From NCBI GenBank assembly GCA_001029755.1, contig CP011214.1:493767-557766 (forward strand): a stretch of DNA of 64,000 bases. Reading direction: 5' to 3'. The notes beneath the pieces are model-generated. The model was given only the letters and a program-made list of their open reading frames with translations, ran no database searches and was not told the origin of the DNA. The first letter of the stretch is position 1. The number at the start of each line of letters is the position of its first letter. Position numbers and translations under genes: made by a program. Origin of the DNA: Candidatus Woesebacteria bacterium GW2011_GWF1_31_35. GTDB taxonomy: Bacteria > Patescibacteriota > Microgenomatia > UBA8517. Below, in pieces: positions 5,430 to 42,889 of the stretch.

Positions 5430-6533
5430 AAAATGAATTTTAAAAGGATCAAATTTATTCGAATTAAAAATTCTGTTAAAAGGTTTAATCCATTAAACTT
5501 TATCTTGGGTTTTTTCTCATCTGATTTAGGGATTGATCTTGGGACTTCAAATACTTTAGTTTATATAAAAAATAAAGGTGTTGTAATTAGAGAACCGTCA
5601 GCTGTTGCAAGGCACAAAAAAACCAAAGAAATTTTAGCAATTGGCCTTTCGGCTAAAAAAATGTTGGGAAGAGCTCCTTCTACAATTGAGGTTATTCGAC
5701 CATTAAAAAACGGTGTTATCGCTGATTTTGATGCAGCTTCCTCAATTTTGACCTATTATATTAAAAAAGTACATGAAACAGGTGGAACAATTCCAAAAAT
5801 TCCAAGACCACATGTTGTAGTTGGAATTCCATCTGGAGTTACTGAAGTCGAAAGAAGGGCTGTAGCTGATGCCGTTCGTGATTCGGGGGCAAGAAGAGTA
5901 GATTTAGTAGAAGAACCTATGGCTGCAGCAATAGGAGCTGGCTTACCAGTAGAATCACCTGAAGGATGTTTTATTGTTGATATTGGAGGAGGTACATCAG
6001 AAATTGCAGTAATTTCTTTGGGTGGAATTGTTTTAGGAAGATCATTAAGGGTTGCAGGAGATGAAATGGATGAAGCGATTGTAAATTATGTTAAGTTAAA
6101 ATATTCACTTTTATTAGGTCAGCCATCTGCAGAAGCTGTAAAAATTGCAATTGCATCGGCCGTTAATTTTGAAAAACCAAAAAATTATGTAGTAAGAGGA
6201 AGAGATTTAGAAACAGGACTTCCTAGATCTGTCAAATTGACTGATGATGAGATAAGAGAGGCGTTAGGCTCTACTATTCAAGAAATAATTGCTGGAATTT
6301 CAGATACATTAGAGGAAACTCCTCCAGAACTTATTTCAGATATTATGGAACGAGGAATATATTTAGCGGGTGGAGGATCTTTAATCTATGGAATTGATAA
6401 GGCAATTTCAGAAGCTACCAAAATGCCAGTATTTTTAGCAGAGGATCCTTTAACTTGTGTTGCTAGAGGTTGTGGAAAACTTTTGGAAAATCCCCTAATG
6501 CTTAATAGGCTTAAAATTACAAAAGGGTTGTAG
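5391..6533 (+). CDS. mreB: Rod shape-determining protein MreB (actin homolog)
   Basis: DLGTSNTLVY phosphate-1 motif, the ...DIGGGTSEIAV segment and an actin-fold pattern; the true start is probably the internal Met at 5433. Confidence 0.85.
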   Translation: MISIAYTAIQKKHKMNFKRIKFIRIKNSVKRFNPLNFILGFFSSDLGIDLGTSNTLVYIKNKGVVIREPSAVARHKKTKEILAIGLSAKKMLGRAPSTIEVIRPLKNGVIADFDAASSILTYYIKKVHETGGTIPKIPRPHVVVGIPSGVTEVERRAVADAVRDSGARRVDLVEEPMAAAIGAGLPVESPEGCFIVDIGGGTSEIAVISLGGIVLGRSLRVAGDEMDEAIVNYVKLKYSLLLGQPSAEAVKIAIASAVNFEKPKNYVVRGRDLETGLPRSVKLTDDEIREALGSTIQEIIAGISDTLEETPPELISDIMERGIYLAGGGSLIYGIDKAISEATKMPVFLAEDPLTCVARGCGKLLENPLMLNRLKITKGL

Positions 6534-29043: not shown

Positions 29044-29649
29044 ATGCCAGAAGAAGAGGTAAAGATTGTGGGTCTTTCTAAAGAAAAAGTTGGAGGGAAA
29101 GTTAATTTTAAGATTATTTTTGCAATAATTGGAATTGTTGTTTTAGCTTTAGGGATAGTTGCTGGAATTATTTTAGTTCGTGAGCAACAAAATATATCAG
29201 AAGATGCTCAGACATGTAATGAAGAATGTCCAAGTGCAGATGGAGTACTTCGAAACTGTCATCCACCAAATTCAAATGGTTCTGCTCAAGAAAGTGTCTG
29301 TAGTAGTAGTGGGCTGGTCGCTTTTTGCGGATCTAGAAATTATTGCTGTCCTTCAGCTGGAGCTCCGTGGACTACAAATTTAACTTTGTGTGCAACAGAG
29401 GCGCCAACACCTACAGAAACTGCGACAGCCACCACAACATCAACAGGATCAGGTTCTCCAACATCAACTACTAGTACAGGATCAGGAAGTGCATCAGTAA
29501 CACCAACTGGTTTTTCAAGAGCAACACCAACTGCTATAGCTTCTGAAACATCAGCTCCAATACCGGTTACCGGAGCATCTTGGCCAACAATATTGGGTGC
29601 AGGAGTTGGTATTATTGTAGTATTAACTTCACTTCTTTTGGCTTTATAA
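29044..29649 (+). CDS. Hypothetical cell-surface protein (Cys-rich domain, Thr/Ser/Gly linker, C-terminal hydrophobic anchor)
   Basis: N-terminal TM, an 8-Cys module, a TPTETATATTTSTGSGSPTSTT linker and a C-terminal TM. Confidence 0.45.
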   Translation: MPEEEVKIVGLSKEKVGGKVNFKIIFAIIGIVVLALGIVAGIILVREQQNISEDAQTCNEECPSADGVLRNCHPPNSNGSAQESVCSSSGLVAFCGSRNYCCPSAGAPWTTNLTLCATEAPTPTETATATTTSTGSGSPTSTTSTGSGSASVTPTGFSRATPTAIASETSAPIPVTGASWPTILGAGVGIIVVLTSLLLAL

Positions 29650-29680: not shown

Positions 29681-30037
29681 ATGGAAAAAGGAATAATAAT
29701 TACGATTGCAACTTTGGTATTAGTGTCAGTTGGTTTTATCATATTTAAACCAAAATTAAATCAAAAAGTTCTAGGTAACAAAACTGAGATAACTTATACT
29801 TTAAATGATGTTTCTACTCATTCAACAACAAATGATTGTTGGACTGTGATTGATAATGGAGTATATGATGTAACAAAATTTATTTCTCAACATCCTGGTG
29901 GAGATAAAATTCTTATGTCTTGTGGAATAAATGCAACAGATTTATTTAATGGAATTTCACCTTTAGGTAGAGTGCATTCAGAAGTTGCCAAAAGGCTTCT
30001 AACTGGTATGAAAATTGGAAATTTTAAGTCTAATTAG
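29681..30037 (+). CDS. Cytochrome b5-like heme/steroid-binding domain protein, membrane anchored
   Basis: DCWTVIDNGVYDVTKFISQHPGGDKIL (HPGG heme-ligand motif). Confidence 0.7.
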   Translation: MEKGIIITIATLVLVSVGFIIFKPKLNQKVLGNKTEITYTLNDVSTHSTTNDCWTVIDNGVYDVTKFISQHPGGDKILMSCGINATDLFNGISPLGRVHSEVAKRLLTGMKIGNFKSN

Positions 30038-31454: not shown

Positions 31455-31481
31455 TTTTCTTCAAGTGTAAAATACACATAT

Positions 31482-31540
31482 GTCATTATCTGTAGGGACG
31501 CGTATTTTACCGCCCCACAATTTGATTTTTACTTCAAAGT
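31482..31540 (+). repeat. Copy A of a ~55-nt direct repeat (hairpin plus T-rich tail), left flank of the radical-SAM cassette
   Basis: GTCAT...GGGACGCGTATTTTACCGCCCCACAATTTGATTTTTACTTCAAAGT is about 80% identical to copy B at 34266-34328. Confidence 0.6.
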
Positions 31541-31668
31541 AACGCTACCCAAGGCTAGAAAGGAAAGAGAAATAGTTGAGCGAGACTGTTTAGGTGGGAT
31601 TTTAGCTTCAAGAGTGCCAGAAGATAAATACCACACACCTGAACTCACTATATATTAAGAAAATCTTT

Positions 31669-32796
31669 TCAGATAAAGACATCGTTAGTCTGAGGTGTAC
31701 GTATCATGTAAGGTAGAAGATTAATTCCTTGTTCGTGGCCATTAGCTAAAAGATGAAGCAACAAATTTGATTCATGTCGAATGCAATAAAATGGGCAAGT
31801 TTTTTTTGGGTTAATAGATTTAGCTTTTTCTACACGAGCAGTAGAATTCCAATAGTCTTTAAAATTTATTTCTATTGAACCGATTTTTTCGTTTTCATGT
31901 CCGCGTTTGTATGGGCAGGGGTAAATTCCTTTAGGAGTTACAACAGTTCTTAATTCAACACTTGGACAAGTTTGGTAATCTTTTGGTTGATTTGGAAACT
32001 TGTTTGTTAACAAGTAATCAGTGGATTTTGGCGAAATAACTTGAAATTCATTAGTATTTAATGCCTCCAACAATGGAGTTTGTCTTACTATCTCAGATTT
32101 AGTATTTATGGATAAGGGTATGAGGTTGTGGTGTGCATCTACTGCTGGTTTATATTCAAAATAATCACAACCAAGATCTCTGGCCAATTTAGCAGCAACA
32201 AAAAGTTCTTGCACATTTGTTTTAGGTCGAGCATTGGGTAAATTTCTTTCAATTAATAAAAAGCTATATCCAAGAATACCTTTTTTTACTTTTGCGAGAG
32301 TCTCAATGTTTGCAGTTGTTTTTGAGAATGAATTGAGAATGTGTGATGGCCGAAATTTAGAATATGTTTCCTGTGTCCCCGCATCCATTGAGACACGTGT
32401 CCACTGTACACATTCAGCTATTTCGTTGGTATATCTATTCATAAGTGAACCGTTTGTTGTAAGACCGACAGAAATTCCTAACTCATACGCTTTGATAATT
32501 GGTTCTGGCATCGATTTATGAGTAAGTGGTTCACCTCCACCAATGAATATAATTCCTTTAACATCTGTATCGTGAAATTCGTCTATCAATCCAGTCAATC
32601 TTTCGTCTTCAATACCACCTTTATTAAGAAGATTGGCGTTTATACATTCAGGACATGAGAAATTGCATGCCGTAGTCGGATCTAGTTCTACAACTAATGG
32701 ACCTGATGTTTGTCGTTTTTCAATATATTCTTCAACTCTAGGTAAGAGGTTCGGTTGTAGCATTTTATGTGTAAAATTTAATACTTCAATTGACAT
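31669..32796 (-). CDS. Radical SAM enzyme with Cys-rich C-terminal region
   Basis: CNFSCPEC (CxxxCxxC) cluster, GGGEPL SAM motif, extra C-terminal cysteines (CPSVEL, CPYKRG, CPFYC). Confidence 0.75.
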   Translation of the reverse strand: MSIEVLNFTHKMLQPNLLPRVEEYIEKRQTSGPLVVELDPTTACNFSCPECINANLLNKGGIEDERLTGLIDEFHDTDVKGIIFIGGGEPLTHKSMPEPIIKAYELGISVGLTTNGSLMNRYTNEIAECVQWTRVSMDAGTQETYSKFRPSHILNSFSKTTANIETLAKVKKGILGYSFLLIERNLPNARPKTNVQELFVAAKLARDLGCDYFEYKPAVDAHHNLIPLSINTKSEIVRQTPLLEALNTNEFQVISPKSTDYLLTNKFPNQPKDYQTCPSVELRTVVTPKGIYPCPYKRGHENEKIGSIEINFKDYWNSTARVEKAKSINPKKTCPFYCIRHESNLLLHLLANGHEQGINLLPYMIRTPQTNDVFI

Positions 32797-33865
32797 GGCT
32801 ATTTAATTTATTCACTATAACACCATCGTTCGATGGTTTTGTTACATAAACCTTAACAGGTAATTCTTTTAGGGAATTAGTGACTTGTTTTGTATTACAA
32901 TTTGGAACTAGCGCAAAAGTACACCCTCCCATGCCTGTACCAGTTAATTTTGCACCAATGGCACCATATTTTAGCGATCTTGAAATACACTCTTCAATGA
33001 GATTTGTTGAAACTCCCATATAATCACGCATTAGAGTGTGACAGTGTGAAATTGAAGATCCAAGCTTATTTGCATCAATTACTTTTCCATCTAGAATATT
33101 TTTCATTTCGTTTATAGCATCATTTGTTGTATTGACATATTTCATTATTAGAGTTTCCTTGTTTGCATATCTTATGCGTTTTTTTCTTATAACATCTGCT
33201 GTATTTCTTGGTGTGAGAGTATCGACAATCACTATATCAAATCCGTCAGGGAGAACAAATTTTTCAATATTTTTTGGGGGTATAGTTGAACTATCTAAAT
33301 ATATCAAACCACCAATTCCGCATGAATACATATCCATTTGACCTGCCCCTGTTCTTAACTCCTCGGACTCGATTTTATAAGCTAGATCGCAAATGGTTGT
33401 TGTGTCCAAAATTGATCCATAAAAGTTTGCAATCGCAGCAACACTAGCAACTGAAACTGCAGCACTGCTACTTAGTCCAGCTTTTGCAGGAAGATTGCTT
33501 GTAATCTCTATAGTAATTGGATATGTTTTAATACCTAAATCACTAATTACTTTTATTGCAGCATTTGTATAATCCAACACATGGTGTGAATAATTACCGA
33601 TTTGATCTTTTAATAAATCTATCTCAGAGTTTAATGAGCCTTTAGTTTTTAATTTGAATACATCATTATTGTTTGATACTGAAGCTTTAGTTTTTAAATC
33701 AATGGCACACAAAATCGAAGGACCTGTTATCCAGTCAATATCTTCTCCTGCCAAACAAATTCTTCCTGGCGTCGTGGCTTCAATTTCCTGAAACATTTTA
33801 TATAGATTTGGCAGGAATTTTGTCGTCCTTAAAAATTTGTGAATTGTTGTTTCCAGTGAGAACAA
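32786..33865 (-). CDS. GHMP-family sugar kinase (galactokinase-like signature)
   Basis: GRICLAGEDIDW resembles the galactokinase signature GRxNLIGEHxDY; PAKAGLSSSAA GHMP ATP-binding motif. Confidence 0.7.
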   Translation of the reverse strand: MFSLETTIHKFLRTTKFLPNLYKMFQEIEATTPGRICLAGEDIDWITGPSILCAIDLKTKASVSNNNDVFKLKTKGSLNSEIDLLKDQIGNYSHHVLDYTNAAIKVISDLGIKTYPITIEITSNLPAKAGLSSSAAVSVASVAAIANFYGSILDTTTICDLAYKIESEELRTGAGQMDMYSCGIGGLIYLDSSTIPPKNIEKFVLPDGFDIVIVDTLTPRNTADVIRKKRIRYANKETLIMKYVNTTNDAINEMKNILDGKVIDANKLGSSISHCHTLMRDYMGVSTNLIEECISRSLKYGAIGAKLTGTGMGGCTFALVPNCNTKQVTNSLKELPVKVYVTKPSNDGVIVNKLNSHVN

Positions 33866-34178
33866 GTTTTATAACAACAAAAATCGCGGTTTTATCGTTG
33901 GTGTTTGCAAAAGTGTGTATGCTATTTTCTACACGAATTAAGTCTCCCTTTTGCACAGTTTCCTTTTTTTCTGTTTCTTTTTCTAACCATCTTATTTCCA
34001 GAGACCCATCAATTATAAATATCAACTCTTCTACGACATTGTGCGAGTGCCATTCTTGGGTTGTTCCCGCAGGAATTTCATTATAGTGAAGTTCGTATTC
34101 TGGTTGAAGGTAATAGTCTACCTGGGTGCCATCAGGTTTTTTCCTATGAATAGCATTTAGTCGATTTATAATTTCCAT
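33798..34178 (-). CDS. Cupin-fold protein
   Basis: WHSHNVVEEL (HxH...E) and GDLIRVENSIHTFAN cupin motifs. Confidence 0.6.
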   Translation of the reverse strand: MEIINRLNAIHRKKPDGTQVDYYLQPEYELHYNEIPAGTTQEWHSHNVVEELIFIIDGSLEIRWLEKETEKKETVQKGDLIRVENSIHTFANTNDKTAIFVVIKLVLTGNNNSQIFKDDKIPAKSI

Positions 34179-34265
34179 TATTAAAAGCTGAGCCTAAGTT
34201 TACTACTTTTTGTTTGTAAAATCAAACCCCTATAGGGTGTGTTTAATCTGTTATAATTACGTTAT

Positions 34266-34328
34266 GTCATCGCTTTCTTGTGGGACACTCATTTCACCGT
34301 CCCAACTTTTGATTTTCACTTCAAGTTT
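34266..34328 (+). repeat. Copy B of the ~55-nt direct repeat, right flank of the radical-SAM cassette
   Basis: GTCAT...GGGACACTCATTTCACCGTCCCAACTTTTGATTTTCACTTCAAGTT; perfect GGGAC/GTCCC stem followed by a T-rich tract. Confidence 0.6.
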
Positions 34329-34450
34329 AAGATTCCGGAGCCAAATAAAGACAGGTTGATTTTAGAAAGAGATAATTTGGGAAGAATAATTCATTCAGAG
34401 CTTCTTTTTAACCAAATTAAAGAAGATGTAATTGATAGTTTATAAAAATT

Positions 34451-35083
34451 TTGTATAATCATTATATGATTAACGAGGAAGAACAAGGGACGAACTCTCA
34501 GCAATCAGAAAAACCATCTGCTTCAGAAATATTTAGTGGAAAGGATGTTGTAATTGGAAGAGAATTAGTAGAACTTCTTATTGCAGACGAGGTAGGAGTT
34601 CCTGTTTATTATCACAATTATCAGAATTTAGATAAAAAGATTAATGTAATGGTAGATAGAGAGGTGGGAAATGAAGACTATTCTGTAAGACAGAAAGAGG
34701 AAAATCATGACCAGCTTTTAGGAATAATTATTCCTACAGCTGATGCCAAAGACCAGTTTATATATATAGGTATCATGGAAGACGATTTTGTTTTTCAAGC
34801 AGGTAGCGATCTTCAAGCTGAATTTAACCCAGAGTCGAATGTTAGATATACATTTGGTTGGCAAAGATTTGGCGACAGAATTGCTCAGCATGAGAATGAT
34901 TCTACAACCCCAGAACGCTATAAATTAGAGATTCTGTTCAAAGCTCATGAAGACTCCCAAAGATTTGATACGAAAGTTTTGGAGGCAGTAGAAAAAAGAA
35001 GACAAATTCATGAAGCGATACGAAAATCGAGAACTGAAATAAGGCAAAATCTCAAAGACAAACTTTTTGGTGGATCTAGTTAA
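34451..35083 (+). CDS. Hypothetical soluble protein (island cargo)
   Basis: 210-aa ORF, acidic, with no recognisable motif. Confidence 0.45.
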   Translation: MYNHYMINEEEQGTNSQQSEKPSASEIFSGKDVVIGRELVELLIADEVGVPVYYHNYQNLDKKINVMVDREVGNEDYSVRQKEENHDQLLGIIIPTADAKDQFIYIGIMEDDFVFQAGSDLQAEFNPESNVRYTFGWQRFGDRIAQHENDSTTPERYKLEILFKAHEDSQRFDTKVLEAVEKRRQIHEAIRKSRTEIRQNLKDKLFGGSS

Positions 35084-35303
35084 CAATCTTCGTGTTAAAA
35101 TACTCTCATGTCAGCCTTAAAAGTCGGGATATACAGTTCACTATTCCAAAAATAGAATTTGCTTCATCTTTTATACTTCCGTTGCCTCGTAAAGCTAGGT
35201 TTATAACACAAAGAGATTGCTTGGGTAGAATTTTAAACTCAAAAATACCTCCAACTATATATAATTATCGGTCAACATAATAAGAATTTAAGGTGTAAAA
35301 TGT

Positions 35304-35852
35304 TTGTGTATGGAGGCACCATTTGGAATAATTTTTCTTAAAAAGGCAGAATTGTTTAATTTAGTTTCAAGGTTTGATAAACAATATGGTGGTTCGCCTA
35401 GCAATAATCCTTGGTTGATTGAAAAACAAATCTTAAGATGGACATATGGACACCATAAACATCTGGGTAGTCCAATAAAGACAGAGCATTTATCGTTAGG
35501 TTCTCAGAATAACAAACTTCATGATTTTAAAATGATTGATTCAAAAGGTGGACTGAGGTCGCAATTTAAATATTTAGAAAAAAACAGTTTAACTAAGCCT
35601 CTGGAAAACTTGGTTGTAAGGGGGTTTGCCAATTATTTTAACGAGTCAGAAGGACATAATGCTATTGTCATAAACAAAGATGGTTTACTTGTAGGAGAAG
35701 TAATTGCTGACATGGAAAAGGACAATATTTTTATTAAAGCAAATTATCTCTTTTATAGTCATATGATGGATCATCTTGGTGCCACTGTAATGATGATTGT
35801 TACAACAATAGGTCTGATAAAGTTATTTATCAGTTTTTTTTATGTCAAATAA
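35304..35852 (+). CDS. Hypothetical protein with C-terminal TM helix (island cargo)
   Basis: 182-aa ORF overlapping the next gene by 11 nt. Confidence 0.4.
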   Translation: MCMEAPFGIIFLKKAELFNLVSRFDKQYGGSPSNNPWLIEKQILRWTYGHHKHLGSPIKTEHLSLGSQNNKLHDFKMIDSKGGLRSQFKYLEKNSLTKPLENLVVRGFANYFNESEGHNAIVINKDGLLVGEVIADMEKDNIFIKANYLFYSHMMDHLGATVMMIVTTIGLIKLFISFFYVK

Positions 35853-36534
35853 AATTCAACCCATAACAGACTATTTTTTATCATTATCAGCTAATCCTAT
35901 TGTTAAGGCTCTTTCACAAATCAGCGTATTTACGGCACCAGTTAATTCACTTTTTTCTGGTGAATATAGTCGTCTTAAAGAAGAAGAACTCTTAACTGTT
36001 GTTCATTCGTTACATTCAAAAATTCAAACAATTGAGCAGAGGTTTATTGATAAGGACTTCTTTTCTTCATATGACGGAAAAAGAGCTTTTGGTATGGCAT
36101 TTTCATCTTTATTAAAGGATTCTAGAAAGCAAAAATTAGAAGCTATGTCCAATCTGTTGGTAAATCTGAGTTTAAAATCAAATGTGTCTTATGATGAACG
36201 ACTTTTATTTTTGGATATATTAGATAGTCTTAACCCGTTTCAACTTACTGTTTTAGGAAGAATATATGAATTTAATAAAGAAAATAGACCAAATTTAAGA
36301 AAAATAGAACCTTCTGGTATTGCAGATTATTTTGCAGATAAGGGAATTGATAGACAATTAACACTCCAAGCAATATCTATCCTTGCAAACAATTATATTT
36401 TAAATAGAGATTCTAGCCCTGTATTAGGAGGGGGAGGGTTAACCCATCATTTTACGGATTTTGGTGAAAAATTTTATATATTTATCTCAACAGTATTGGA
36501 TAAAAATAGTGAGTATCTAAAGATAACTAGTTAG
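35842..36534 (+). CDS. Hypothetical protein (island cargo; weak resemblance to Abi-type proteins)
   Basis: 230-aa ORF translationally coupled to the upstream gene; no confident motif. Confidence 0.4.
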   Translation: MSNKIQPITDYFLSLSANPIVKALSQISVFTAPVNSLFSGEYSRLKEEELLTVVHSLHSKIQTIEQRFIDKDFFSSYDGKRAFGMAFSSLLKDSRKQKLEAMSNLLVNLSLKSNVSYDERLLFLDILDSLNPFQLTVLGRIYEFNKENRPNLRKIEPSGIADYFADKGIDRQLTLQAISILANNYILNRDSSPVLGGGGLTHHFTDFGEKFYIFISTVLDKNSEYLKITS

Positions 36535-36748
36535 GTTTGATATCCAACAATTTTGACAATGTTGTATCCAATGCTCTGGCTATATTGTATGCTGTTCTAA
36601 TAGATATATTCCTTCCCTTTTCAATATCCCAGAAATATGCTCTATGTAAGTTTGATTTTTCAGCTAGTTGTTCTTGGGTCATTCCCTTTTCCTTGCGTAG
36701 CCATTCAATTCTTTCACCTAACTTTCTGTAAATAGGTTTGTAATTCAT
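36527..36748 (-). CDS. XRE-family helix-turn-helix transcriptional regulator
   Basis: LRKEKGMTQEQLAEKSNLHRAYFWDIEKG is a canonical XRE/Cro-CI HTH. Confidence 0.8.
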   Translation of the reverse strand: MNYKPIYRKLGERIEWLRKEKGMTQEQLAEKSNLHRAYFWDIEKGRNISIRTAYNIARALDTTLSKLLDIKPN

Positions 36749-36863
36749 ACCCTAAGGGTAGTAGATTCCAAAATAAATCTTTACCAGATATATCTTGCTT
36801 TTATAGTCGTTGGAGGCGTATTATCAAGATAACATGTTCTGTTATCAGAATACTTAGATAGAT

Positions 36864-37556
36864 ATGGAAGAAATACGATTTTCAAAAAATAATGCAAAAA
36901 AATTTAGAAATATTTGGCTTGTAAGTTTATTGCTCTTTGTAGTTTCTATAATAGGTATGCTTTCAAATATTGCCACCGATAATACTGGCACATATTTTGG
37001 TCTGTTTACGCTCATTTTATCCCTTTCTGTTATCGTTGGTTCTTTGTCATTTGTTATATGGATATACAAAATAGGAAATAAAATAATTAAGAATATTATT
37101 AAGATTCTTGGAATGCTAACGGGAAGTATATTTTTTCTTATGATTTTATGGATGATCCTTTTTCGCTATGCGATTGTTGATGGAAGTTCAATGGAGCCAT
37201 CATATAAACACAATGAAATATATCTTGTTAGTAAGTTCGCCCTCAAATCTAGTGATCCTAAACGAGGAGATGTAGTTGATTATTACTTTATTAATAAAAA
37301 TAATGAGAGGATGGGTAGAATAGTGGGTTTACCACACGAAACCATTCTTGTAGCCTCTGACGAGCTTACAGTTGACGGTAATAAGCTTGATGAACCTTAT
37401 GTTGATTGGAGTGAATGGACCAAGGGAAGAGAAGAAAACATCACCCTTAAAGACGGCGAGTTTCTAGTGCTTTTTGATAAAAGGGGTGGGGACATGCAAG
37501 TTATTAAAAAAGAAAACATAATAGGTAAATTTATATTCAAGCTATACGCTAAATGA
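36864..37556 (+). CDS. Signal peptidase I (S26 family)
   Basis: DGSSMEPS catalytic Ser box and GDVVDYYF; two N-terminal TM helices. Confidence 0.7.
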   Translation: MEEIRFSKNNAKKFRNIWLVSLLLFVVSIIGMLSNIATDNTGTYFGLFTLILSLSVIVGSLSFVIWIYKIGNKIIKNIIKILGMLTGSIFFLMILWMILFRYAIVDGSSMEPSYKHNEIYLVSKFALKSSDPKRGDVVDYYFINKNNERMGRIVGLPHETILVASDELTVDGNKLDEPYVDWSEWTKGREENITLKDGEFLVLFDKRGGDMQVIKKENIIGKFIFKLYAK

Positions 37557-38173
37557 AATCTATCTTCAAAAAGTTTTTTTCAGAAATAAAAAGAATGGCA
37601 GATAATTATAGTTCATTAATTTTAATACTGATTTTAATTGTGCTTATTGCTCCTTATGCATTTCAGTTAACAAACAAGTTAAAAAATAATTATGTTTTAA
37701 ATAAAAGGTTCAAGGTAGAACTGAGGGAAAGAGAAATTGAAAAGCTTAAACAAGAAAATGTTAATAACAAAATCAATAATCTAATCCAACAATACAATAT
37801 TGAAACACTTACGAGTGGTGGGTTTGTAAAACTATTATATGAATATTTGGATGCTAAATCAGATATTGAAAGATATTACAAAGATTATAACCTGTCTTGC
37901 GCAGACTTAGCCAATGGAGTGGAATATAAATCTGACTCCACTTTTTTTAATGATATAGACTTCTCTAGATTTACACGAGATATTGCTATTGAAAATTGTC
38001 AGATAGCTAATTCAACAAAAGGTCATTATGAACAATTTATTAAAGAAAAAGGTTTGATTGAAAAACTTATTTCTGAAAACCAAAATAATACAGATCTAGA
38101 AATCAGAGATTTTATATCAAACATTTCTAGACAATTAGTATCCATAAACTTAAAATTGAGTCTATTAGATTAA
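37553..38173 (+). CDS. Hypothetical membrane-anchored coiled-coil protein
   Basis: N-terminal TM, a coiled-coil stretch, 4-nt overlap with the signal peptidase gene. Confidence 0.4.
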   Translation: MKSIFKKFFSEIKRMADNYSSLILILILIVLIAPYAFQLTNKLKNNYVLNKRFKVELREREIEKLKQENVNNKINNLIQQYNIETLTSGGFVKLLYEYLDAKSDIERYYKDYNLSCADLANGVEYKSDSTFFNDIDFSRFTRDIAIENCQIANSTKGHYEQFIKEKGLIEKLISENQNNTDLEIRDFISNISRQLVSINLKLSLLD

Positions 38174-38180
38174 CGAAATT

Positions 38181-38810
38181 ATGAAAAAATATCTGTTGAT
38201 AATATTTTTAGGAGCCCTAACACTTTCTGTATTTACTTTTATTAATAGATCTAACCCAATTATTAATGTTAAAAATACAAACCAATCACCTTCTATAAAA
38301 GATAGTTCTCAAGCAGAATGCCCTTTTTTTGTAGATAAAAACTTTCCAAAAGAATACTTTTCTAATGTATTTAATGAAGTAATGGTGTCTTACCCTCCTT
38401 CTCTGATCACTTCCAATCAAGAAATAATTCCCATTAAAGAAAGATTCAATCCATTAAAAGAACCTTTTGGCGGTGAATTTTATACGATTCCTAAAGGAGC
38501 ATATCCTTGGACCGAAAGAAATTTTGATCTAGATAACGACGAGAAGAAGGAAAGGATTTTATCTGCAGATACTGCCATGAATCACACACCAAATTTGGCA
38601 GTAATTGTTAAGGATGGATACATAATTTATAAAACCAAGGGGGCAAATGTATATATAAGTGAGGTTGGTGACCATAATGGATTTTTTCTCCATGAAAATA
38701 CCGATTGGAATAGTGGAGAATATAAAACCACTAGGTATGTTCATAAGGACGAAAAATTCATTCCTGTTTGGTTTCAAACCTCTTGTGTTGTTAGACCACA
38801 AAGTGACTAA
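38181..38810 (+). CDS. Hypothetical secreted protein
   Basis: Signal peptide MKKYLLIIFLGALTLSVFTF. Confidence 0.4.
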   Translation: MKKYLLIIFLGALTLSVFTFINRSNPIINVKNTNQSPSIKDSSQAECPFFVDKNFPKEYFSNVFNEVMVSYPPSLITSNQEIIPIKERFNPLKEPFGGEFYTIPKGAYPWTERNFDLDNDEKKERILSADTAMNHTPNLAVIVKDGYIIYKTKGANVYISEVGDHNGFFLHENTDWNSGEYKTTRYVHKDEKFIPVWFQTSCVVRPQSD

Positions 38811-39227
38811 CTCCTTGTGTGTATAAGGACTACACATGTTTGTGCCCATCCTCAAGCATCCCATCAAGGCTAGAGTCATTTTCTACAAGCAAAACAACTT
38901 CAATGCAATATCAATGCAATTGCCTAGGCAAGGGCAAGGCTACGCCCTGTGCAAATGTAATGACTATATTGCTAAGTAGCAGGTTTGGTAATTGAACTAT
39001 ACCTACCCTCCATATTAATATTTTGGTTCCCTGTGGGTATTGATATTATTTGATAGATGAGATATATTGATATAGTCAAGAGAGATTGGAGATAGAAAAA
39101 TATACAGAAAGATCTCCAGTTTTCTCCATTACACAAAGTAATTAATACACTAATCATTTAGCACAGCCATTGTCCCAGCTCCATTTGAGCGTTTGACCAA
39201 GGCACCGCATTAAGATTCAAAATTTTT

Positions 39228-39245
39228 AAGACGGTGTCTTTTTTG
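39228..39245 (+). terminator. Intrinsic terminator-like hairpin (AAGAC-GGT-GTCTT followed by TTTTTT)
   Basis: 5-bp GC-containing stem and a 6-T run. It sits at the end of a 450-nt ORF-free GC-shifted segment, inside the 9-bp inverted repeat TTTGACCAA/TTGGTCAAA. Confidence 0.4.
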
Positions 39246-39261
39246 TTGGTCAAATATTTAT

Positions 39262-39444
39262 ATGATTAATGATACTAGTCAAGCTATATTAACAAGCCCA
39301 GAACCCCTTGTAGTGGCTCAAAAGTGTCCTGTGTGTAATGGTTTCGGAACTTTAAAATATGGATCTTTAATTTGTCATGGTTGTTCTGGTAAGGGTTACA
39401 TATTGATACCTAACAATATTAGTTCAAAAAAGAACAAACAATAG
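39262..39444 (+). CDS. Small DnaJ-type zinc-finger protein (two CxxCxGxG repeats)
   Basis: CPVCNGFG and CHGCSGKG. Confidence 0.45.
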   Translation: MINDTSQAILTSPEPLVVAQKCPVCNGFGTLKYGSLICHGCSGKGYILIPNNISSKKNKQ

Positions 39445-39456
39445 AAAGTTGGAATC

Positions 39457-40011
39457 ATGACACTATACAGAATTGAAGATGTTAAAAAGAAATATCCAAA
39501 TTGGTTTTCCGCCGATTCTGAATTAACTTATGATGAACAAAAATGGATATGGGAAAATTCACTGTTACCTGAAGGCAATAACAAAGGCTTAGAACAAGTA
39601 GGTAAACAAGATAGCACAAGTATTAGTCTTATTAGAAGTGTTAGTGGTATACGGAATCTTAAAGAAAATGTAAACGAAAACCGACAGAAAAATGAAGCAA
39701 TTAAGGATCTTCAAGATTACACATACAAAACCCCCCTTAAATTCATAGCGATAAAATTAGAAACCATATTTGGCATATGGGATAAAAAGCCTTTCCACTG
39801 GATATATATAGCAGAGAACTACACTCCTAAAGCAATAAATTCTGTTTTAAGAGAGATGAGAAAACGAAAAGAAAACGGAGGTATGCCATTAGAGATACCT
39901 GGTGCCTATTTTACTAAAGTATTAACAAAGTATCACTCCAAAAGAAAATTACCCAAACGAAAAGAGATTGCATATACCAATGGAGGCATCAAACAGCAAA
40001 ATAATGAATAA
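39457..40011 (+). CDS. Hypothetical protein (island)
   Basis: 184-aa ORF, basic C-terminus. Confidence 0.4.
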   Translation: MTLYRIEDVKKKYPNWFSADSELTYDEQKWIWENSLLPEGNNKGLEQVGKQDSTSISLIRSVSGIRNLKENVNENRQKNEAIKDLQDYTYKTPLKFIAIKLETIFGIWDKKPFHWIYIAENYTPKAINSVLREMRKRKENGGMPLEIPGAYFTKVLTKYHSKRKLPKRKEIAYTNGGIKQQNNE

Positions 40012-40178
40012 GTTAAAAGTTCTAAAACTTAATTTCTATTCGTGCGAAGGAAATGATTATAAACATGAGGTGAATAGTTTTTACTTCAATTTGTTTGACA
40101 ATATTTTAAGAGAAATACGACAAAAGTCATTGACAATAAAGTGTGATATAAATACACTAAAGTTAACTAAAGTATAGT

Positions 40179-40355
40179 ATGAATGATGAATATCTTACAT
40201 TAGAAGAAGTTTCAAAAAAACTAAAAGTGAATAAAATCACAGTTTACAGAATGGCAAAAAGGGGAAAAATCCCTGCATTTAAATTCGGAAAAGTATGGAG
40301 AGTTGATAATAAAAAGTTAGAAAGAATGATAGAAAGAAAATTAAATGGAAAATGA
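40179..40355 (+). CDS. Excisionase-family (HTH_17 / Xis-like) DNA-binding protein, 58 aa, not in the supplied ORF track
   Basis: Translation gives MNDEYLTLEEVSKKLKVNKITVYRMAKRGKIPAFKFGKVWRVDNKKLERMIERKLNGK. The LTxxEVxxxLxVxxxTVYRxxxxGxIPAxKxGxxWR pattern is diagnostic. It overlaps the recombinase start by 11 nt. Confidence 0.65.
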   Translation: MNDEYLTLEEVSKKLKVNKITVYRMAKRGKIPAFKFGKVWRVDNKKLERMIERKLNGK

Positions 40356-41976
40356 CAAAAAAATTGTAGCTATATATGCGAGGGTATCAACTGGAAGGCA
40401 GGAACAGGAAGCAACTATTGAATCTCAATTGGATGAAGTTAAAAGGAAAATTATAGAAGATGGACATATATTACCTGATGAAAATATCTTTATAGATGAT
40501 GGATGGTCTGGCGAACTTATAGCTAGACCAGACCTAGACAGAATGAGGGATTTTGCTTTGACGGGAAAATTTTCTGCTTTATATGTTTATGACAGGGGAA
40601 GATTATCAAGAAGATTTACTCATCAAGAAATAGTTATTGAGGAACTGTCCGATAAAGAAATTGGTTTTATTTCTCTTCATGATATTAATGCACTGACTCC
40701 AGAAGAACATGTTTTGCAAGCAATGCAGGGTGTATTTCACGAATATGAAAGAGTAAAAATTGTTGAAAGGATGAGAAGGGGGAAATTATTTAAAGCAAGG
40801 AACGGAATAGTAATTAGTGGCGATGCTTTGTATGGTTATAAGTATGTTAAAAAGACTGATACTACTCCTACACATTGGGCAATAGATGAAAACGAGAGCG
40901 AAGTGGTTAAGAAAATGTTTAGGTGGTTTGTGATAGATAAAATAGGCATTAACGCAATTATTAACAAGCTATCTGATGAGGGAATTCCAACAAAAAAAGG
41001 TAAGAGTAAACATTGGACTAAAGGACCAGTTAGTAGAATATTGTGTTGTGATACTTACTTTACTGGAGTGGCTTACTACAATAAATCAGAGTCAATTGTA
41101 AGTAAACGAAGGTTAAAGAATGAAAAGTATTTCAAAATCAAGAAAAATAGTCGTAAACAACGACCTAAAGAGGAATGGATTCCATTTGATGTGCCGATAA
41201 TTATAGAAGATAAATCTTTTTTTGATAGATCACTTCAACTATTAAATTACAACAAAAAATTTGCCAATAAGAATAAAAAATTTGACTACATTCTTTCAGG
41301 AAAATTTTACTGTGAACACGGCTTCCCAATGGTTGGAGATGGTAAACAAGGCAGTCAAAGATATTATCGTAGCAGTGATAAAGTTCGCAGGAACGAATTA
41401 AGAACTTGTGATTGTGAGGGGGTGAATGTTTTTGTTGTTGAGGGTCTTTGGTGGAAACATATTAAGGATATAATATCTAATCCTGATTTTATAAAACTGA
41501 AAATTAAAGAATATGTTGAATCAAGAGCAGGAGTTAATACATCATTTGAACAAGACATACTTATAAATAAAACAAAGATCTCTAATTTAACTGATCAGGA
41601 GTCAAAATTTGCACAAATGTATGCTGAGAATTTGATTGATCTTGATCAATTGAGAGGATTGATTAAACAAGTAAAAGATAGGAAATTCATATTTACACGG
41701 AATCTTAAAAAACTAGAAAGAATTAAACCAGTAAAAGTAAGAATTAACGATGAAGAAATATCTCTACTTTACGATAAGGCAAGAGAGGTATTACAATCAC
41801 AAGACTTTTCGGATAAAAATTTGGTGTTACGAGATTTAGTGAGTAAAATAGTATTAAAGAAAGGAGGAGAGGTAAATACATGGATAAATATACCAATAAA
41901 TACCCAATACTTGGAACATGGGACTGAGCGTAGGGATAGTAGGTCTTCCAAATGTGGGGAAGTCCACACTTTTTAA
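40345..41976 (+). CDS. Large serine recombinase (resolvase/invertase catalytic domain, recombinase domain and zinc ribbon)
   Basis: IYARVSTGRQE catalytic Ser motif, DRLSRR-like block (DRGRLSRR), GYKYV recombinase domain, Cys clusters; the 3' end overlaps ychF by 59 nt. Confidence 0.8.
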   Translation: MENDKKIVAIYARVSTGRQEQEATIESQLDEVKRKIIEDGHILPDENIFIDDGWSGELIARPDLDRMRDFALTGKFSALYVYDRGRLSRRFTHQEIVIEELSDKEIGFISLHDINALTPEEHVLQAMQGVFHEYERVKIVERMRRGKLFKARNGIVISGDALYGYKYVKKTDTTPTHWAIDENESEVVKKMFRWFVIDKIGINAIINKLSDEGIPTKKGKSKHWTKGPVSRILCCDTYFTGVAYYNKSESIVSKRRLKNEKYFKIKKNSRKQRPKEEWIPFDVPIIIEDKSFFDRSLQLLNYNKKFANKNKKFDYILSGKFYCEHGFPMVGDGKQGSQRYYRSSDKVRRNELRTCDCEGVNVFVVEGLWWKHIKDIISNPDFIKLKIKEYVESRAGVNTSFEQDILINKTKISNLTDQESKFAQMYAENLIDLDQLRGLIKQVKDRKFIFTRNLKKLERIKPVKVRINDEEISLLYDKAREVLQSQDFSDKNLVLRDLVSKIVLKKGGEVNTWINIPINTQYLEHGTERRDSRSSKCGEVHTF

Positions 41977-42889
41977 TGCTCTTTTAAAAAAGCAACTTGC
42001 ATATGTTGCTAATTTTCCATTTGCAACGATAGAACCTAATATTGGAGTTGTTCCTGTTCCTGATGAAAGACTTACTAAATTATCTAAAATATATAATTCT
42101 CCAATTGTTCCAGCTACTGTTCAATTTGTAGATATTGCAGGACTAATTGCAGGAGCTTCTAAAGGAGAAGGACTTGGAAATAAATTTTTAAGTCACATTA
42201 GAGACGTATCCGCAATTTGTCATGTAATTCGAGTATTTACTGATCCTGACATAATAAAGCAAGGAGTAGTAAGTCCTAAAGATGATTTTGAAATAGTTAA
42301 ACTTGAATTGGATTTAGCTGATCAGCAAACTTTAGAAAATCATGAAAAGAAAAAAAATAAAGATATTGAGAGTTTACCTTTATTTTCTAAAAAACCTATT
42401 TTAATTGTTTTAAATATTGATGAAAAAGATTTAGTTAAGGCAGAAGAATTGGAAGGTGAGTATGCTACCAAACTTGGTGTTTTAAAAGATCAAGTCGTTG
42501 CAGTATCTGCAAAAGTTGAATCAGAACTATCAGAACTTTCAGAAGATGATCAAAAATCATATCTTTCCGATTTAGGTGTTAAAAACTCAGGACTTGAAAG
42601 ACTTATTCAAAAAGCATTTAAAACATTAGGATTAATTACCTTTTTAACTGCAGGTGAAAAAGAAGTTAGGGCTTGGACTATTAAAGATGGAATTACAGCT
42701 CAGGAGGCATCTGGTGTTATTCATACTGATTTTATGAATAAATTTATAAAAGCTGATATTTGTAATTTTAATGATTTTATAGAGAATAATGGATGGAAAA
42801 ACGTTAGAGAATTAGGAAAGGTAAGAAGCGAAGGAAGAGATTATATAGTTAAAGATGGAGATGTTGTTGAATTTAAAATTGGAAGTTAA
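41918..42889 (+). CDS. ychF: Ribosome-binding ATPase YchF (Obg-family GTPase)
   Basis: GIVGLPNVGKSTLFNAL G1 motif and a TGS-like C-terminus. Confidence 0.85.
   Translation: MGLSVGIVGLPNVGKSTLFNALLKKQLAYVANFPFATIEPNIGVVPVPDERLTKLSKIYNSPIVPATVQFVDIAGLIAGASKGEGLGNKFLSHIRDVSAICHVIRVFTDPDIIKQGVVSPKDDFEIVKLELDLADQQTLENHEKKKNKDIESLPLFSKKPILIVLNIDEKDLVKAEELEGEYATKLGVLKDQVVAVSAKVESELSELSEDDQKSYLSDLGVKNSGLERLIQKAFKTLGLITFLTAGEKEVRAWTIKDGITAQEASGVIHTDFMNKFIKADICNFNDFIENNGWKNVRELGKVRSEGRDYIVKDGDVVEFKIGS

Follow-up and report, generated by a model that had tools for sequence, protein, structure and literature searches.

A conserved cupin, GHMP kinase and radical SAM operon as probable cargo of a serine recombinase array upstream of ychF in a Candidatus Woesebacteria genome

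A small cupin, a GHMP kinase and a radical SAM (rSAM) enzyme are encoded by three genes in the window, i.e., the whole stretch of 64,000 nucleotides analyzed here, and their operon is a conserved yet uncharacterised three-enzyme set. Judged from the sequences that flank it, the operon is very probably cargo, carried by a 2.8-kb cassette within a tandem array of elements of a large serine recombinase (LSR). The three enzymes may act as a self-contained module to tailor or salvage some unusual sugar, a function whose likelihood falls just short of even; the two layers combined, a sugar module carried as LSR-array cargo, are given an even chance. A description of the rSAM, GHMP and cupin trio was not found in the literature, partner and defence contexts included.

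The three enzymes of the operon

The three minus-strand genes of the preliminary description and its motifs (CxxxCxxC, GGGEPL and the GHMP signature) were confirmed, as were its superfamily assignments by Pfam matches to Radical_SAM, GHMP_kinases_N/C and Cupin_2, with GalKase_gal_bdg slightly below threshold. The operon starts with the cupin gene (33798-34178, minus strand; 126 aa), and a single base separates the cupin stop from the kinase ATG at 33796. The longest kinase reading frame begins at TTG 33865 (32786-33865, minus strand). Since the kinase homologues are about 330 aa long and an ATG lies at 33796, the gene probably spans 32786-33796 (336 aa). It overlaps by 11 nt with the rSAM gene (31669-32796, minus strand; 375 aa). 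The GC content of the cassette with the trio is 35%, compared with 28% in the flanks. As had been proposed, the proteins belong to no characterised pathway or family: none reached the curated cut-off of a named NCBIfam family, every match being far below. The PADLOC-DB 2.0 scan revealed no anti-phage system, with no match for kinase or cupin and only generic N-terminal pVip matches for the rSAM enzyme. Searches of plasmid and phage collections returned distant or unannotated matches only.

The cupin scored 39.2 with Cupin_2 (PF07883; threshold 27.2). Residues H44, H46, E50/E51 and H88 were invariant in 12 sequences and form an HxH...E...H metal site within the Cupin_2 barrel; from this invariant His/His/Glu/His site, the protein is predicted to bind a metal. 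The same subfamily also occurs alone, and the best 120 homologues were all stand-alone proteins, with no informative fusions among the matches listed. The cupin is tied more loosely to the rSAM enzyme than the kinase is.

Motif I of the kinase is PGRICLAGEDIDW, with the Arg of galactokinase and a GEDIDW signature. It aligned with SPGRVNLIGEHTDY of P. furiosus GalK, and the catalytic Asp, predicted by alignment to lie in GQMDMY, aligned with the Asp of GILDQF; Asp also occupies the position of the GalK His. The galactokinase-like motif G-R-x-x-L-x-G-E-x-x-D-aromatic is present together with the catalytic Asp. The scores were below the cut-offs for galactokinase (TIGR00131, 106.7 vs. 226.65; PF10509, 22.3 vs. 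23.1) and mevalonate kinase (TIGR00549, 135.7 vs. 163.05). By these sequence features, the window kinase is classed as GalK-like and not as a nucleotide kinase.

The best NCBIfam and PDB matches of the kinase were nevertheless mevalonate kinases (147 and 136 bits). They favor an isoprenoid module, in which the GHMP protein would be a divergent mevalonate or phosphomevalonate kinase, the NUDIX protein found near it in other genomes would be either an IDI-like enzyme or a hydrolase of isoprenyl phosphates, and an isoprenoid would be what the rSAM enzyme modifies. IDI type 1 is a member of the NUDIX superfamily, and a GDGT/macrocyclic archaeol synthase was one of the three PDB sequence matches of the rSAM enzyme. 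However, motif I combines the GalK Arg with GE-x-x-D-aromatic and shows Arg and Asp where mevalonate kinase carries Lys and His, and the galactokinase models scored nearly as high as the mevalonate kinase models. Moreover, the NUDIX partners were closest to NudE, NudK and ADP-ribose/NAD diphosphatases, and no further mevalonate-pathway gene was present in any neighbourhood examined. An isoprenoid role is thus regarded as highly improbable.

The rSAM enzyme belongs to a family of more than 1,100 homologues and carries the core cluster motif C44-x3-C48-x2-C51 as well as FIGGGEPL. The additional C-terminal cysteines noticed earlier proved to be four, C277, C294, C334 and C338, which were invariant in an alignment of 24 diverse homologues, as were many Arg and Lys residues. 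The four cysteines suggest a putative twitch-like auxiliary [4Fe-4S] domain; since there are only four, the enzyme would be twitch-like and not of the full 7-Cys SPASM form, and Pfam SPASM (PF13186) did not match the protein. The AF2 model was confident (pLDDT 92.7), and its best structural neighbours in the PDB by Foldseek were SuiB, DesII, BlsE, SkfB and anSME, each with a probability of 1.0, with CteB also among the top matches. Sugar enzymes and peptide maturases both occur among them, with a TM of about 0.6 and 14% identity throughout. By sequence, BlsE was the top PDB match. The CxxxCxxC core, the C-terminal Cys cluster and the fold similar to anSME, BtrN or SkfB place the enzyme in the SPASM/twitch subclass.

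With SuiB, SkfB, CteB and anSME among the structural matches, a RiPP-like or anSME-like peptide or protein maturase was considered, for which the three paralogous small ORFs flanking the operon would encode precursor peptides. Only about 30 residues precede the rSAM core, leaving no room for an RRE domain, and the small ORFs are C-terminal fragments of a recombinase (see below), the first of which lacks a canonical start. They were absent from every other trio locus, and the conserved partner is a kinase of a sugar/small-molecule class. A role in maturation is therefore extremely improbable.

Conserved partner genes and a candidate sugar pathway

The trio is kept together in other CPR bacteria and in Acidobacteriota, Bacteroidota, Planctomycetota and Actinomycetota, with differing flanks; absence of the trio from all other genomes, which by the preliminary description would have spoken against it, is thus not the case. 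The GHMP kinase adjoined the rSAM gene in 56 of 86 loci from many phyla, as did genes for NUDIX (in 41 loci), cupin (10), aldo-keto reductase (AKR; 5) and 2H-like (4) proteins, counts that are no unbiased census because 80 genome loci were taken by similarity rank and were mostly from Streptomyces. Cupin, kinase and rSAM genes occurred together in 10 loci, and their order followed three different patterns. The family of the rSAM-GHMP pair counts more than 500 genome loci, among them a cluster kept in more than 40 Streptomyces and Kitasatospora species.

Recurrent partners were NUDIX hydrolases, aldo-keto reductases, a GT2-cupin fusion (in Clostridium), GalE-like SDR, PseC-like aminotransferase, sugar ABC importers and a probable 2H phosphoesterase. 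At locus L088, genes for a NudE/NudK-like NUDIX protein and a PseC-like aminotransferase come after the trio, the Streptomyces loci encode a GalE/RmlB-like SDR and a sugar-type ABC importer, and Agrobacterium has an AAA_33 kinase-NUDIX fusion. The partner of about 225 aa showed only weak Pfam matches to 2H phosphoesterases, and its profile found nothing among PDB sequences. Genes for NUDIX, AKR or 2H-type partners are not encoded within the 64-kb window. The recurrent partners are more in keeping with sugar or nucleotide-sugar chemistry than with defence of the viperin type, and of the two products proposed in the preliminary description, a modified sugar is the one that the partner genes favor.

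The exact chemistry, as we infer it, would begin with phosphorylation of a sugar hydroxyl, probably the anomeric one, by the GalK-like kinase. The twitch-type rSAM enzyme would generate a 5'-deoxyadenosyl radical to take a hydrogen off the ring of its substrate (sugar, sugar-phosphate or nucleotide-sugar), leading to dehydration, oxidation or epimerisation as in DesII, BlsE, AprD4, BtrN and HygY, and the metal cupin would isomerise or epimerise the resulting keto/enol sugar. Elsewhere, this core may be extended by an AKR ketoreductase, a PseC-like aminotransferase, a GalE-like SDR, a NUDIX enzyme of the NDP-sugar/ADP-ribose type, the probable 2H phosphoesterase, the cupin-fused glycosyltransferase or a sugar ABC importer.

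The rSAM enzyme shares with DesII, BlsE and BtrN the CxxxCxxC core followed by a C-terminal Cys-rich auxiliary-cluster domain, and DesII and BlsE are near it by structure or sequence. Further twitch/SPASM rSAM enzymes acting on sugars are AprD4, HygY and NeoN, and the reductase, aminotransferase and SDR partners of the trio family resemble the logic of AprD4/AprD3 and DesI/DesII. In contrast to these enzymes, the window rSAM enzyme is only about 14-16% identical to them (TM about 0.6), is not part of an antibiotic cluster and has a GalK-like kinase partner, which they lack. Leloir salvage by GalK and GalE is similar with respect to the GalK-like signature and to the Streptomyces clusters with GalE-like SDR and sugar ABC importer. 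It differs in that the trio family has an rSAM enzyme and NUDIX instead of GalT or another nucleotidyltransferase, and a kinase under the galactokinase cut-offs. Since a nucleotidyltransferase was never seen beside the kinase in the loci examined, an NDP-sugar route would be incomplete.

Alternatively, the genes may encode an antiviral or antimicrobial nucleotide-analogue factory with a viperin-like rSAM enzyme, in which kinase, NUDIX and 2H proteins adjust phosphorylation. Viperin forms ddhCTP, and as in viperin/pVip-plus-kinase pairs, the rSAM gene is linked to a kinase gene, and part of the family is found in mobile-island contexts. Many non-CPR loci were found in mobile or defence-island-like contexts, several of them among transposases, integrases and recombinases, one adjoining Dpd genes and another STAND NTPases; NUDIX proteins are frequent, the AAA_33 kinase-NUDIX fusion and the probable 2H phosphoesterase of four loci fit the idea, and the invariant Arg and Lys residues suggest an anionic substrate. 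The pVip HMMs did match the rSAM enzyme, but only in its generic N-terminal core: NF038283 scored 46.9 bits (cut-off 180) over residues 35-147, and the PADLOC pVip models 52 and 45 bits over residues 34-147. Viperin structures ranked 22nd or lower by Foldseek (TMq 0.45-0.48), well below SPASM/twitch enzymes, and to our knowledge viperins lack a four-Cys auxiliary domain. The viperin analogy drawn earlier is thus not borne out for the rSAM enzyme, nor is the viperin-plus-kinase style of nucleotide analogue for a kinase that is GalK-like. Unlike viperin/pVip pairs, the window set combines the four-Cys domain and a GHMP kinase with a family of carbohydrate-type partners (sugar importer, GalE-like SDR, PseC-like aminotransferase and GT2), while the sampled cargo of sister arrays was not defensive. 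Ophion (rSAM, PHP and PRTase) differs from the trio in composition. Overall, a nucleotide-analogue factory is unlikely.

Junction units and a probable integration array at ychF

The cassette had been described as lying precisely between two copies of a direct repeat of about 55 nt. The repeat is real, and the trio fills the gap almost exactly, with 10 nt between the stop of the ORF in copy 1 and the rSAM stop; yet there are three copies, all in the same orientation, and they represent LSR integration junctions at ychF and not a generic bracket. Copies 1 and 2 (31479-31537 vs. 34263-34324) are imperfect, being 74% identical across 62 nt (within-window E = 2e-5); the pair was missed by a repeat search at default settings. 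The 62-nt stretch is the best-conserved core of units of about 190 nt, in each of which the promoter and initial codons of ychF are fused to the last ~45 codons of an LSR.

Junction unit 1 (31465-31658, plus strand; attL-type) comprises the ychF-type -10 box TGTAAAAT, an ATG at 31480 with five ychF-like codons (MSLSVG) and the core GGGA at 31495-31498. In another frame, it encodes the last ~54 LSR codons (RDAYFTAPQFDFYFKVTLPKARKEREIVERDCLGGILAS...) up to the stop at 31656-31658, a peptide with 65% amino acid identity to residues 539-581 of the LSR from contig L099; this frame has no canonical start codon. Junction unit 2 (34249-34445, plus strand) consists of TGTTATAAT, ATG 34264 (MSSLSCG) and GGGA at 34282-34285, after which the LSR C-terminal segment (WDTHFTVPTFDFHFKFKIPEPNKDRLILERDNLGRIIHS...) follows. 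Junction unit 3 (35093-35280, plus strand) contains TGTTAAAAT, ATG 35108 (MSALKVGI) and GGGA at 35126-35129, again followed by an LSR C-terminal segment. The left arms correspond to true 5' regions of ychF in further CPR contigs; that of unit 3 is nearly identical to the 5' end of the real ychF gene in contig L093.

Conservation among the copies is that of a coding frame, with substitutions increasing from codon position 2 to 1 to 3, and the other frames contain 3-4 stops. This codon-position pattern, together with the recombinase homology, overturned the idea that the repeat start (TGTTATAAT...ATGTCA) is an sRNA or leader promoter. Duplicated two-gene modules were also rejected, as no paralogy links the two ORFs that follow copies 2 and 3. 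When the window was scanned with Rfam and for tRNAs, there was no match at or around the repeats, which are thus neither a known RNA nor an att site of the tRNA type.

The missing body of the recombinase was found 6-10 kb downstream of the junction units, where a tail-less LSR gene (40345-41976, plus strand; Resolvase, Recombinase and Zn_ribbon_recom domains) abuts ychF. The LSR is 51% identical to the intact 585-aa L099 LSR up to ...GTERRD. From there on, the 45 conserved C-terminal residues are missing, and the frame continues into ychF with the tail SRSSKCGEVHTF before its stop. The attR-type junction (41918-41936, plus strand) reads ATGGGACTGAGCGTAGGGA, encoding HGTERRD of the recombinase and, in the +1 frame, MGLSVG, the start of ychF (41918-42889, plus strand), the ribosome-binding ATPase gene that served as integration target. 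A similar 19-mer occurs within the intact LSR genes of L099 and L115, and intact LSRs carry ATGGGACTGAGCGTAGGGAT, or an MSLSVG variant, in the +1 frame. Internally, L099 and L115 continue from ATGGGACTGAGCGTAGGGAT directly into ACTCATTTC, i.e., the junction sequence is uninterrupted in intact homologues. A tblastn search with the intact L099 LSR gave one match at 40345-41988, which covers residues 6-553, and separate matches of residues ~539-584 to the three repeats. The LSR parts thus lie co-oriented on the plus strand at opposite ends, the N-terminal part at 40345-41936 and C-terminal parts from 31498, 34285 and 35129, as expected for a split integrase. The three recombinase domains, the position of the gene at the element end by the att junction and the sequence switch at GGGA are those of an LSR element. 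Since the repeats are LSR/ychF junctions and the tail-less LSR stands at ychF, the trio would be cargo of an integration array.

Cassette 2 holds a 210-aa ORF without family match (34451-35083, plus strand). The youngest element carries further cargo (35304-40011), namely ORFs of 182, 230, 206, 209 and 184 aa, an XRE HTH protein (36527-36748, minus strand) and a signal-peptidase-S26-like protein (36864-37556).

The repeat-encoded peptide matched 180 cluster representatives, mostly of 55-85 aa, and several of these continue straight from L099/L115-like recombinase C-terminal sequence. Their number and size, the coding-like substitutions, the frame open in all three copies, and the TTG and GTG starts at copies 2 and 3 would also suit an independent family of small proteins, e.g., regulators or toxins, duplicated here by chance. 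However, the same segment forms the contiguous C-terminus of intact LSRs and is exactly what the window LSR lacks, and the apparently conserved N-terminus (MLKF-H-) is the translated ychF -10 box plus ATG. Copy 1 has no start, copy 2 has an in-frame stop in its N-terminal part, and frameshifted copies exist in other arrays. Such a family is thus very unlikely to explain the repeats.

Similar arrays precede ychF in many CPR contigs. The motif was found in 30 metagenome loci, eight of which hold 2-5 co-oriented copies 0.6-1.5 kb apart, with ychF downstream in 10 of the 30. Contig L095 shares the left flank of the window and carries different cassettes, and the sampled cargo of sister arrays was metabolic or transport-related. 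A viral-contig scan for the repeat peptide found nothing, the motif was absent from the other trio-bearing CPR loci, and no description of an LSR array at ychF in CPR was found in the literature.

For the growth of the array, we infer the following mode. The attP site would lie inside the 3' end of the element's own recombinase gene and the target would be the first ychF codons. Integration would split the recombinase: the last ~45 codons would come to lie at the left junction, joined to the promoter and start of ychF that the insertion displaced, and the truncated gene at the right junction, where the embedded ATG-G-L-S-V-G would restore the ychF start. Of such events, the window retains three left junctions and a single truncated recombinase. 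The left arm of every one of these junctions is of the B-type (native ychF), and no recombinase body lies between them, which is unexpected under simple repeated attP x attB integration. Neither an excised circle nor an empty site was seen.

Known cassette systems and meaning for CPR bacteria

In staphylococcal cassette chromosome (SCC) arrays, the large serine recombinases CcrAB/CcrC act at the rlmH 3' end. The ychF array is similar in its LSR at a housekeeping-gene end, its tandem cassettes with target-end direct repeats and its many cassettes without recombinase. It differs in targeting the ychF 5' end instead of the rlmH 3' end, in the promoter within each junction and in its CPR hosts; since the att site lies within the recombinase coding region, integration would, unlike in SCC, split the recombinase. 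In SSV1-type archaeal viruses and the Myxococcus phage Mx8, attP lies inside int, and tyrosine recombinases target tRNA genes. As there, attP in the integrase ORF would mean that integration separates or replaces the integrase C-terminus, whereas the ychF-array recombinase is of the large serine type and carries a built-in mimic of its target, the start of a protein gene. Integrons likewise hold short, mostly one-gene and mostly co-oriented accessory metabolic or transport cassettes split by a repeated recombination module. In the array, however, the sole recombinase is of the serine type, an IntI tyrosine recombinase is lacking, and in place of an attC hairpin the repeated module consists of a promoter and a coding remnant.

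It is conceivable, although distinctly less than probable, that CPR bacteria possess an LSR-driven, integron-like cassette system at the ychF start, one cassette of which spreads a new rSAM/GalK-like-kinase/cupin sugar pathway. If so, each cassette would combine a copy of the ychF promoter with the recombinase's detachable C-terminal 'exon', excision by attL x attR would rebuild a working recombinase, and cassettes without recombinase could be mobilised in trans. The pathway, distributed from Patescibacteria to Streptomyces, would make or salvage a new radical-derived sugar or nucleotide-sugar.

An LSR with attP in its own gene and a mimic of its target's start would be an unusual design of possible interest for integrase genome engineering. 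As the rSAM-GHMP pair represents a large family, solving a single member would improve the annotation of many genomes, and new radical sugar chemistry would probably come to light. How CPR bacteria, with their tiny genomes, come by accessory metabolism is poorly understood; a site-specific array of cassettes at ychF would offer a concrete mechanism of gene flow in these bacteria that can be put to the test.

Gene content and families of the trio

The region is made up of three closely packed minus-strand genes, encoding a radical SAM (rSAM) enzyme (31669–32796, 375 aa), a GHMP kinase and a cupin (33798–34178, 126 aa). The longest ORF of the kinase gene spans 32786–33865 and overlaps the rSAM gene by 11 nt. 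The gene itself probably spans 32786–33796, since homologous kinases comprise about 330 aa and the cupin stop is followed, one base on, by an ATG at 33796. Radical_SAM, GHMP_kinases_N/C and Cupin_2 were confirmed by Pfam, with the galactokinase signature scoring 0.8 bits under threshold. In an alignment of 24 rSAM homologues (down to 40% identity), CxxxCxxC, GGGEP and four C-terminal cysteines were all invariant, as were many Arg/Lys residues. Thus, the gene arrangement, rSAM motifs and C-terminal cysteines of the preliminary description were confirmed. Residue-level alignment revealed the catalytic Asp, the galactokinase-type Arg and the GE-x-x-D-aromatic motif in the kinase (PGRICLAGEDIDW vs PGRVNLIGEHTDY). 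The predicted His/His/Glu/His metal site of the cupin was invariant, and the protein is 100% identical to A2422_04240 of Candidatus Woesebacteria bacterium RIFOXYC1_FULL_31_51. Cupin residues 23–68 gave a sub-threshold thymidylate synthase match (PF00303, E = 1e-4; PDB 4h0r, E = 0.016), which is probably due to chance.

None of the three proteins reached a curated NCBIfam cut-off, in keeping with the preliminary description, which recognised no known pathway in the trio. The top match of the rSAM enzyme was a tungsten-cofactor maturase model (75 bits, cut-off 380). The viperin model matched its N-terminal core only (47, cut-off 180), and PADLOC returned nothing for the trio beyond a generic pVip N-terminal match. 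The kinase scored 136–147 bits with mevalonate kinase and 107–117 bits with galactokinase models, all below threshold. Among PDB sequences, the rSAM enzyme weakly matched BlsE (E = 1e-4) and a tetraether synthase. With the 24-sequence alignment as input, AlphaFold2 gave a confident model (pLDDT 92.7), and its best Foldseek PDB neighbours were SuiB, DesII, BlsE, SkfB and anSME (TM about 0.6, about 14% identity), with viperins and MoaA placed lower. From this ranking, the enzyme is predicted to belong to the SPASM/twitch class, with one predicted four-Cys auxiliary site and no close characterised relative.

Elsewhere in the window, the product of 29681–30037 combines an N-terminal membrane helix with a cytochrome b5-like haem/steroid-binding domain (PF00173, 70 bits), a domain unusual for a CPR bacterium. 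The adjoining gene (29044–29649) encodes a secreted Cys- and Thr/Ser-rich protein of 201 aa.

Repeat units and the ychF array

The direct repeat reported to bracket the trio exists, but in three imperfect copies rather than two. The positions 31479–31537 and 34263–34324 share 74% identity over 62 nt (E = 2e-5) and form the core of units of about 190 nt; a third copy lies at 35093–35280, and all three are on the plus strand. The copies are kept as a reading frame: substitutions were fewest at codon position 2 and most frequent at position 3, amino-acid identity was about 50% (nucleotide identity 52–62%), and the other frames contain stops. Searching 1.84 billion proteins with a profile of the three peptides yielded 180 cluster representatives, of which 59 had E < 1e-10. 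Most comprise 55–85 aa, and several continue directly from sequence resembling a recombinase C-terminus. The metagenome locus L099 encodes a 585-aa Resolvase-domain protein whose C-terminal end is the repeat motif. By tblastn, its residues 6–553 matched window positions 40345–41988 (51% identity) and residues about 539–584 matched the three repeats. At the sequence level, this comparison was decisive for reading the repeat as a predicted recombinase tail instead of a plain cassette bracket.

The window recombinase ORF (40345–41976; Resolvase, Recombinase and Zn-ribbon domains) is followed by ychF (41918–42889). The recombinase reads ...LEHGTERRD before diverging into SRSSKCGEVHTF*, and ATGGGACTGAGCGTAGGGATAGTAGG at its end encodes, in the +1 frame, the ychF start MGLSVGIVG. 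In intact recombinases this ychF-start mimic is internal and followed by a conserved tail; L099 is the same as the window junction up to GGGAT, and locus L115 carries an ATG-S-L-S-V-G variant. Every window repeat opens with a TGTTAAAAT-type -10 box, followed 6–7 bases on by an ATG with 5–6 ychF-like codons (MSLSVG, MSSLSCG, MSALKVGI), and switches to the recombinase tail at GGGA. The left arms closely resemble genuine ychF 5' regions of other CPR contigs (copy 3, L093; copy 1, L107). Since the arms match ychF 5' ends and the tails match the recombinase, the four sites appear to behave as three attL-type (ychF 5'/recombinase tail) and one attR-type (recombinase body/ychF) junctions. The attP site would lie inside the recombinase gene; integration there would split the recombinase, and ychF would stay intact thanks to the embedded start codon. 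The ychF array has likenesses to integrons, to SCC arrays at rlmH and to the split integrases of SSV1 and Mx8, but is none of these.

Cassette 1 (31499–34281, about 2.8 kb) carries the trio, cassette 2 a single 210-aa ORF, and the third element (35130–41936) seven ORFs and the recombinase body. The trio has a GC content of about 35%, the left flank one of about 28%. At each of the three left junctions the arm is of the native type (B), and the recombinase body is absent between them, a pattern not expected from simple serial attP x attB integration. Possibly, cassettes without a recombinase were mobilised in trans, older recombinases were precisely lost, or strains exchanged DNA by homologous recombination. 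Speculatively, selection to restore a functional recombinase on excision may conserve the tail at the protein level in recombinase-less cassettes. Neither an excised circle nor an empty site was seen.

A metagenome scan found the repeat motif at 30 loci, of which eight held 2–5 co-oriented copies 0.6–1.5 kb apart, some frameshifted; at 10 of the 30, ychF is located downstream of the copies. Locus L095 shares the left flank of the window (ABC ATPase and ABC-3 permease, 55–66% identical) and has four junctions before ychF, with cargo unlike that of the window. Sampled array cargo, mostly co-oriented with the junction promoter, included CorA, an Ldh_2 dehydrogenase, a methyltransferase, GNAT, an MFS transporter and a PPDK_N-like protein. 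The copies L093:3704-3908, L093:4847-4981 and L097:1801-1884 are frameshifted or truncated, which is more in line with recombination scars that decay than with genes that are maintained. No serine-recombinase array of this kind in CPR was found described in the literature. The repeats are reinterpreted as predicted serine-recombinase junctions, which would make the trio a mobile cassette in a ychF hotspot shared across CPR.

The trio appears to move by other vehicles too, because the junction motif was absent from the other trio loci examined. In a Bacteroidota MAG (L013), it lies in an island of about 4.5 kb between direct repeats of about 125 nt (5060–5185 and 9593–9718; 94% identical over 109 aligned nt). 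These repeats duplicate a minus-strand gene at its 3' end, which is the hallmark of another integrative element. At L001, it is flanked by a perfect 20-nt direct repeat (about 6505–6524 and 9235–9254).

Conservation and partner genes

Homologues of the rSAM enzyme number more than 1,130 in the protein collection, and representative genomes contain at least 525 loci of the family. A 26%-identical relative of the enzyme is encoded in a 735-kb uncultured phage genome (LR756501.1:323236-324180). The trio proved to be a conserved neighbourhood in CPR and non-CPR genomes, in three gene orders: cupin-GHMP-rSAM is found again in other CPR genomes, where the flanks differ wholly, as well as in one Bacteroidota and one Pyrinomonadaceae MAG and in a 2.5-Mb genome; Mariniblastus has cupin-rSAM-GHMP, and a Solirubrobacteraceae genome rSAM-cupin-GHMP. 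The combination was not found described in the literature.

HMMs from neighbour clusters were scored over 86 non-redundant rSAM loci, a similarity-ranked, Streptomyces-rich sample, so the counts are associations and not frequencies. The rSAM gene was adjoined by a GHMP kinase at 56 loci, a NUDIX hydrolase at 41, a cupin at 10 (each time with the kinase), an aldo-keto reductase (AKR) at five and a protein of about 225 aa at four. In two genomes, cupins of the subfamily occur alone (L091:7001-7387 and L092:7001-7381; 42–47% identical), and neither an rSAM nor a GHMP gene lies within 7 kb of them. Given these counts and the stand-alone cupins, rSAM and kinase are the core and the cupin is accessory.

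The ~225-aa protein directly follows rSAM-GHMP (L016:10199-10870, L015:10096-10800, L017:10120-10797, L004:12255-12920) and has two HxT/S motifs (LHVSVA, IIHTTLF). It is probably a 2H phosphoesterase, judging by weak matches to 2'-5' RNA ligase/HVSL families; an intermediate with a cyclic phosphate is thereby hinted at. The Clostridium cupin forms a fusion with a GT2 glycosyltransferase, with an AKR next. The genes after the L088 trio encode a NudE/NudK-like NUDIX, a PseC-like sugar aminotransferase and an FAD oxidoreductase. A cluster shared by more than 40 Streptomyces and Kitasatospora species has genes for a sugar-type ABC binding protein and an ABC permease, then rSAM, and then, in convergent orientation, GHMP, NUDIX and a GalE/RmlB-like SDR; no published description of this cluster was found, and a DMFA2_C-domain protein is often encoded upstream (L020–L085; e.g., L028:7827-11950, L068). 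In Agrobacterium (L005:9302-10432 and downstream), rSAM-GHMP precedes an uncharacterised 279-aa protein and an AAA_33(KTI12)-NUDIX fusion, flanked by integrase/IS66 and Dpd-type helicases with DpdG.

Proposed function in sugar metabolism

The partner set (GalK-like kinase, GalE-like SDR, DegT/PseC aminotransferase, ketoreductase, cupin, GT2, NDP-sugar/ADP-ribose-type NUDIX and sugar importer) is typical of the metabolism of sugars and nucleotide sugars. Twitch-type rSAM enzymes working on sugar rings are an established kind, including AprD4/AprD3 with its dehydratase-reductase logic, BtrN, HygY and NeoN; DesII and BlsE, of this kind, were among the top matches of the window enzyme. Given these partners and this precedent, a radical sugar tailoring or salvage module is favoured. 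A weak point is that a nucleotidyltransferase was absent from every neighbourhood examined.

Between the two products initially envisaged, the sugar is favoured over a viperin-like one. That the trio is a viperin-like defence system retains some support from the mobile or defence-island surroundings of family loci, namely transposases (L004), an integrase plus Dpd genes (L005), STAND NTPases (L088) and IS elements (L090). However, the rSAM enzyme did not score as a viperin, and a defensive role leaves the carbohydrate partners unexplained; the rSAM defence system Ophion differs in composition.

In the favoured sugar module, the kinase would phosphorylate a sugar, the rSAM enzyme would abstract a ring hydrogen so that the sugar is dehydrated, oxidised or epimerised, and the cupin would isomerise the product. 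The invariant Arg/Lys residues of the rSAM enzyme would fit a phosphorylated substrate. The direction of the pathway can be read both ways: an importer, as in Streptomyces, points to catabolism or salvage, and the GT2 fusion of Clostridium to biosynthesis.
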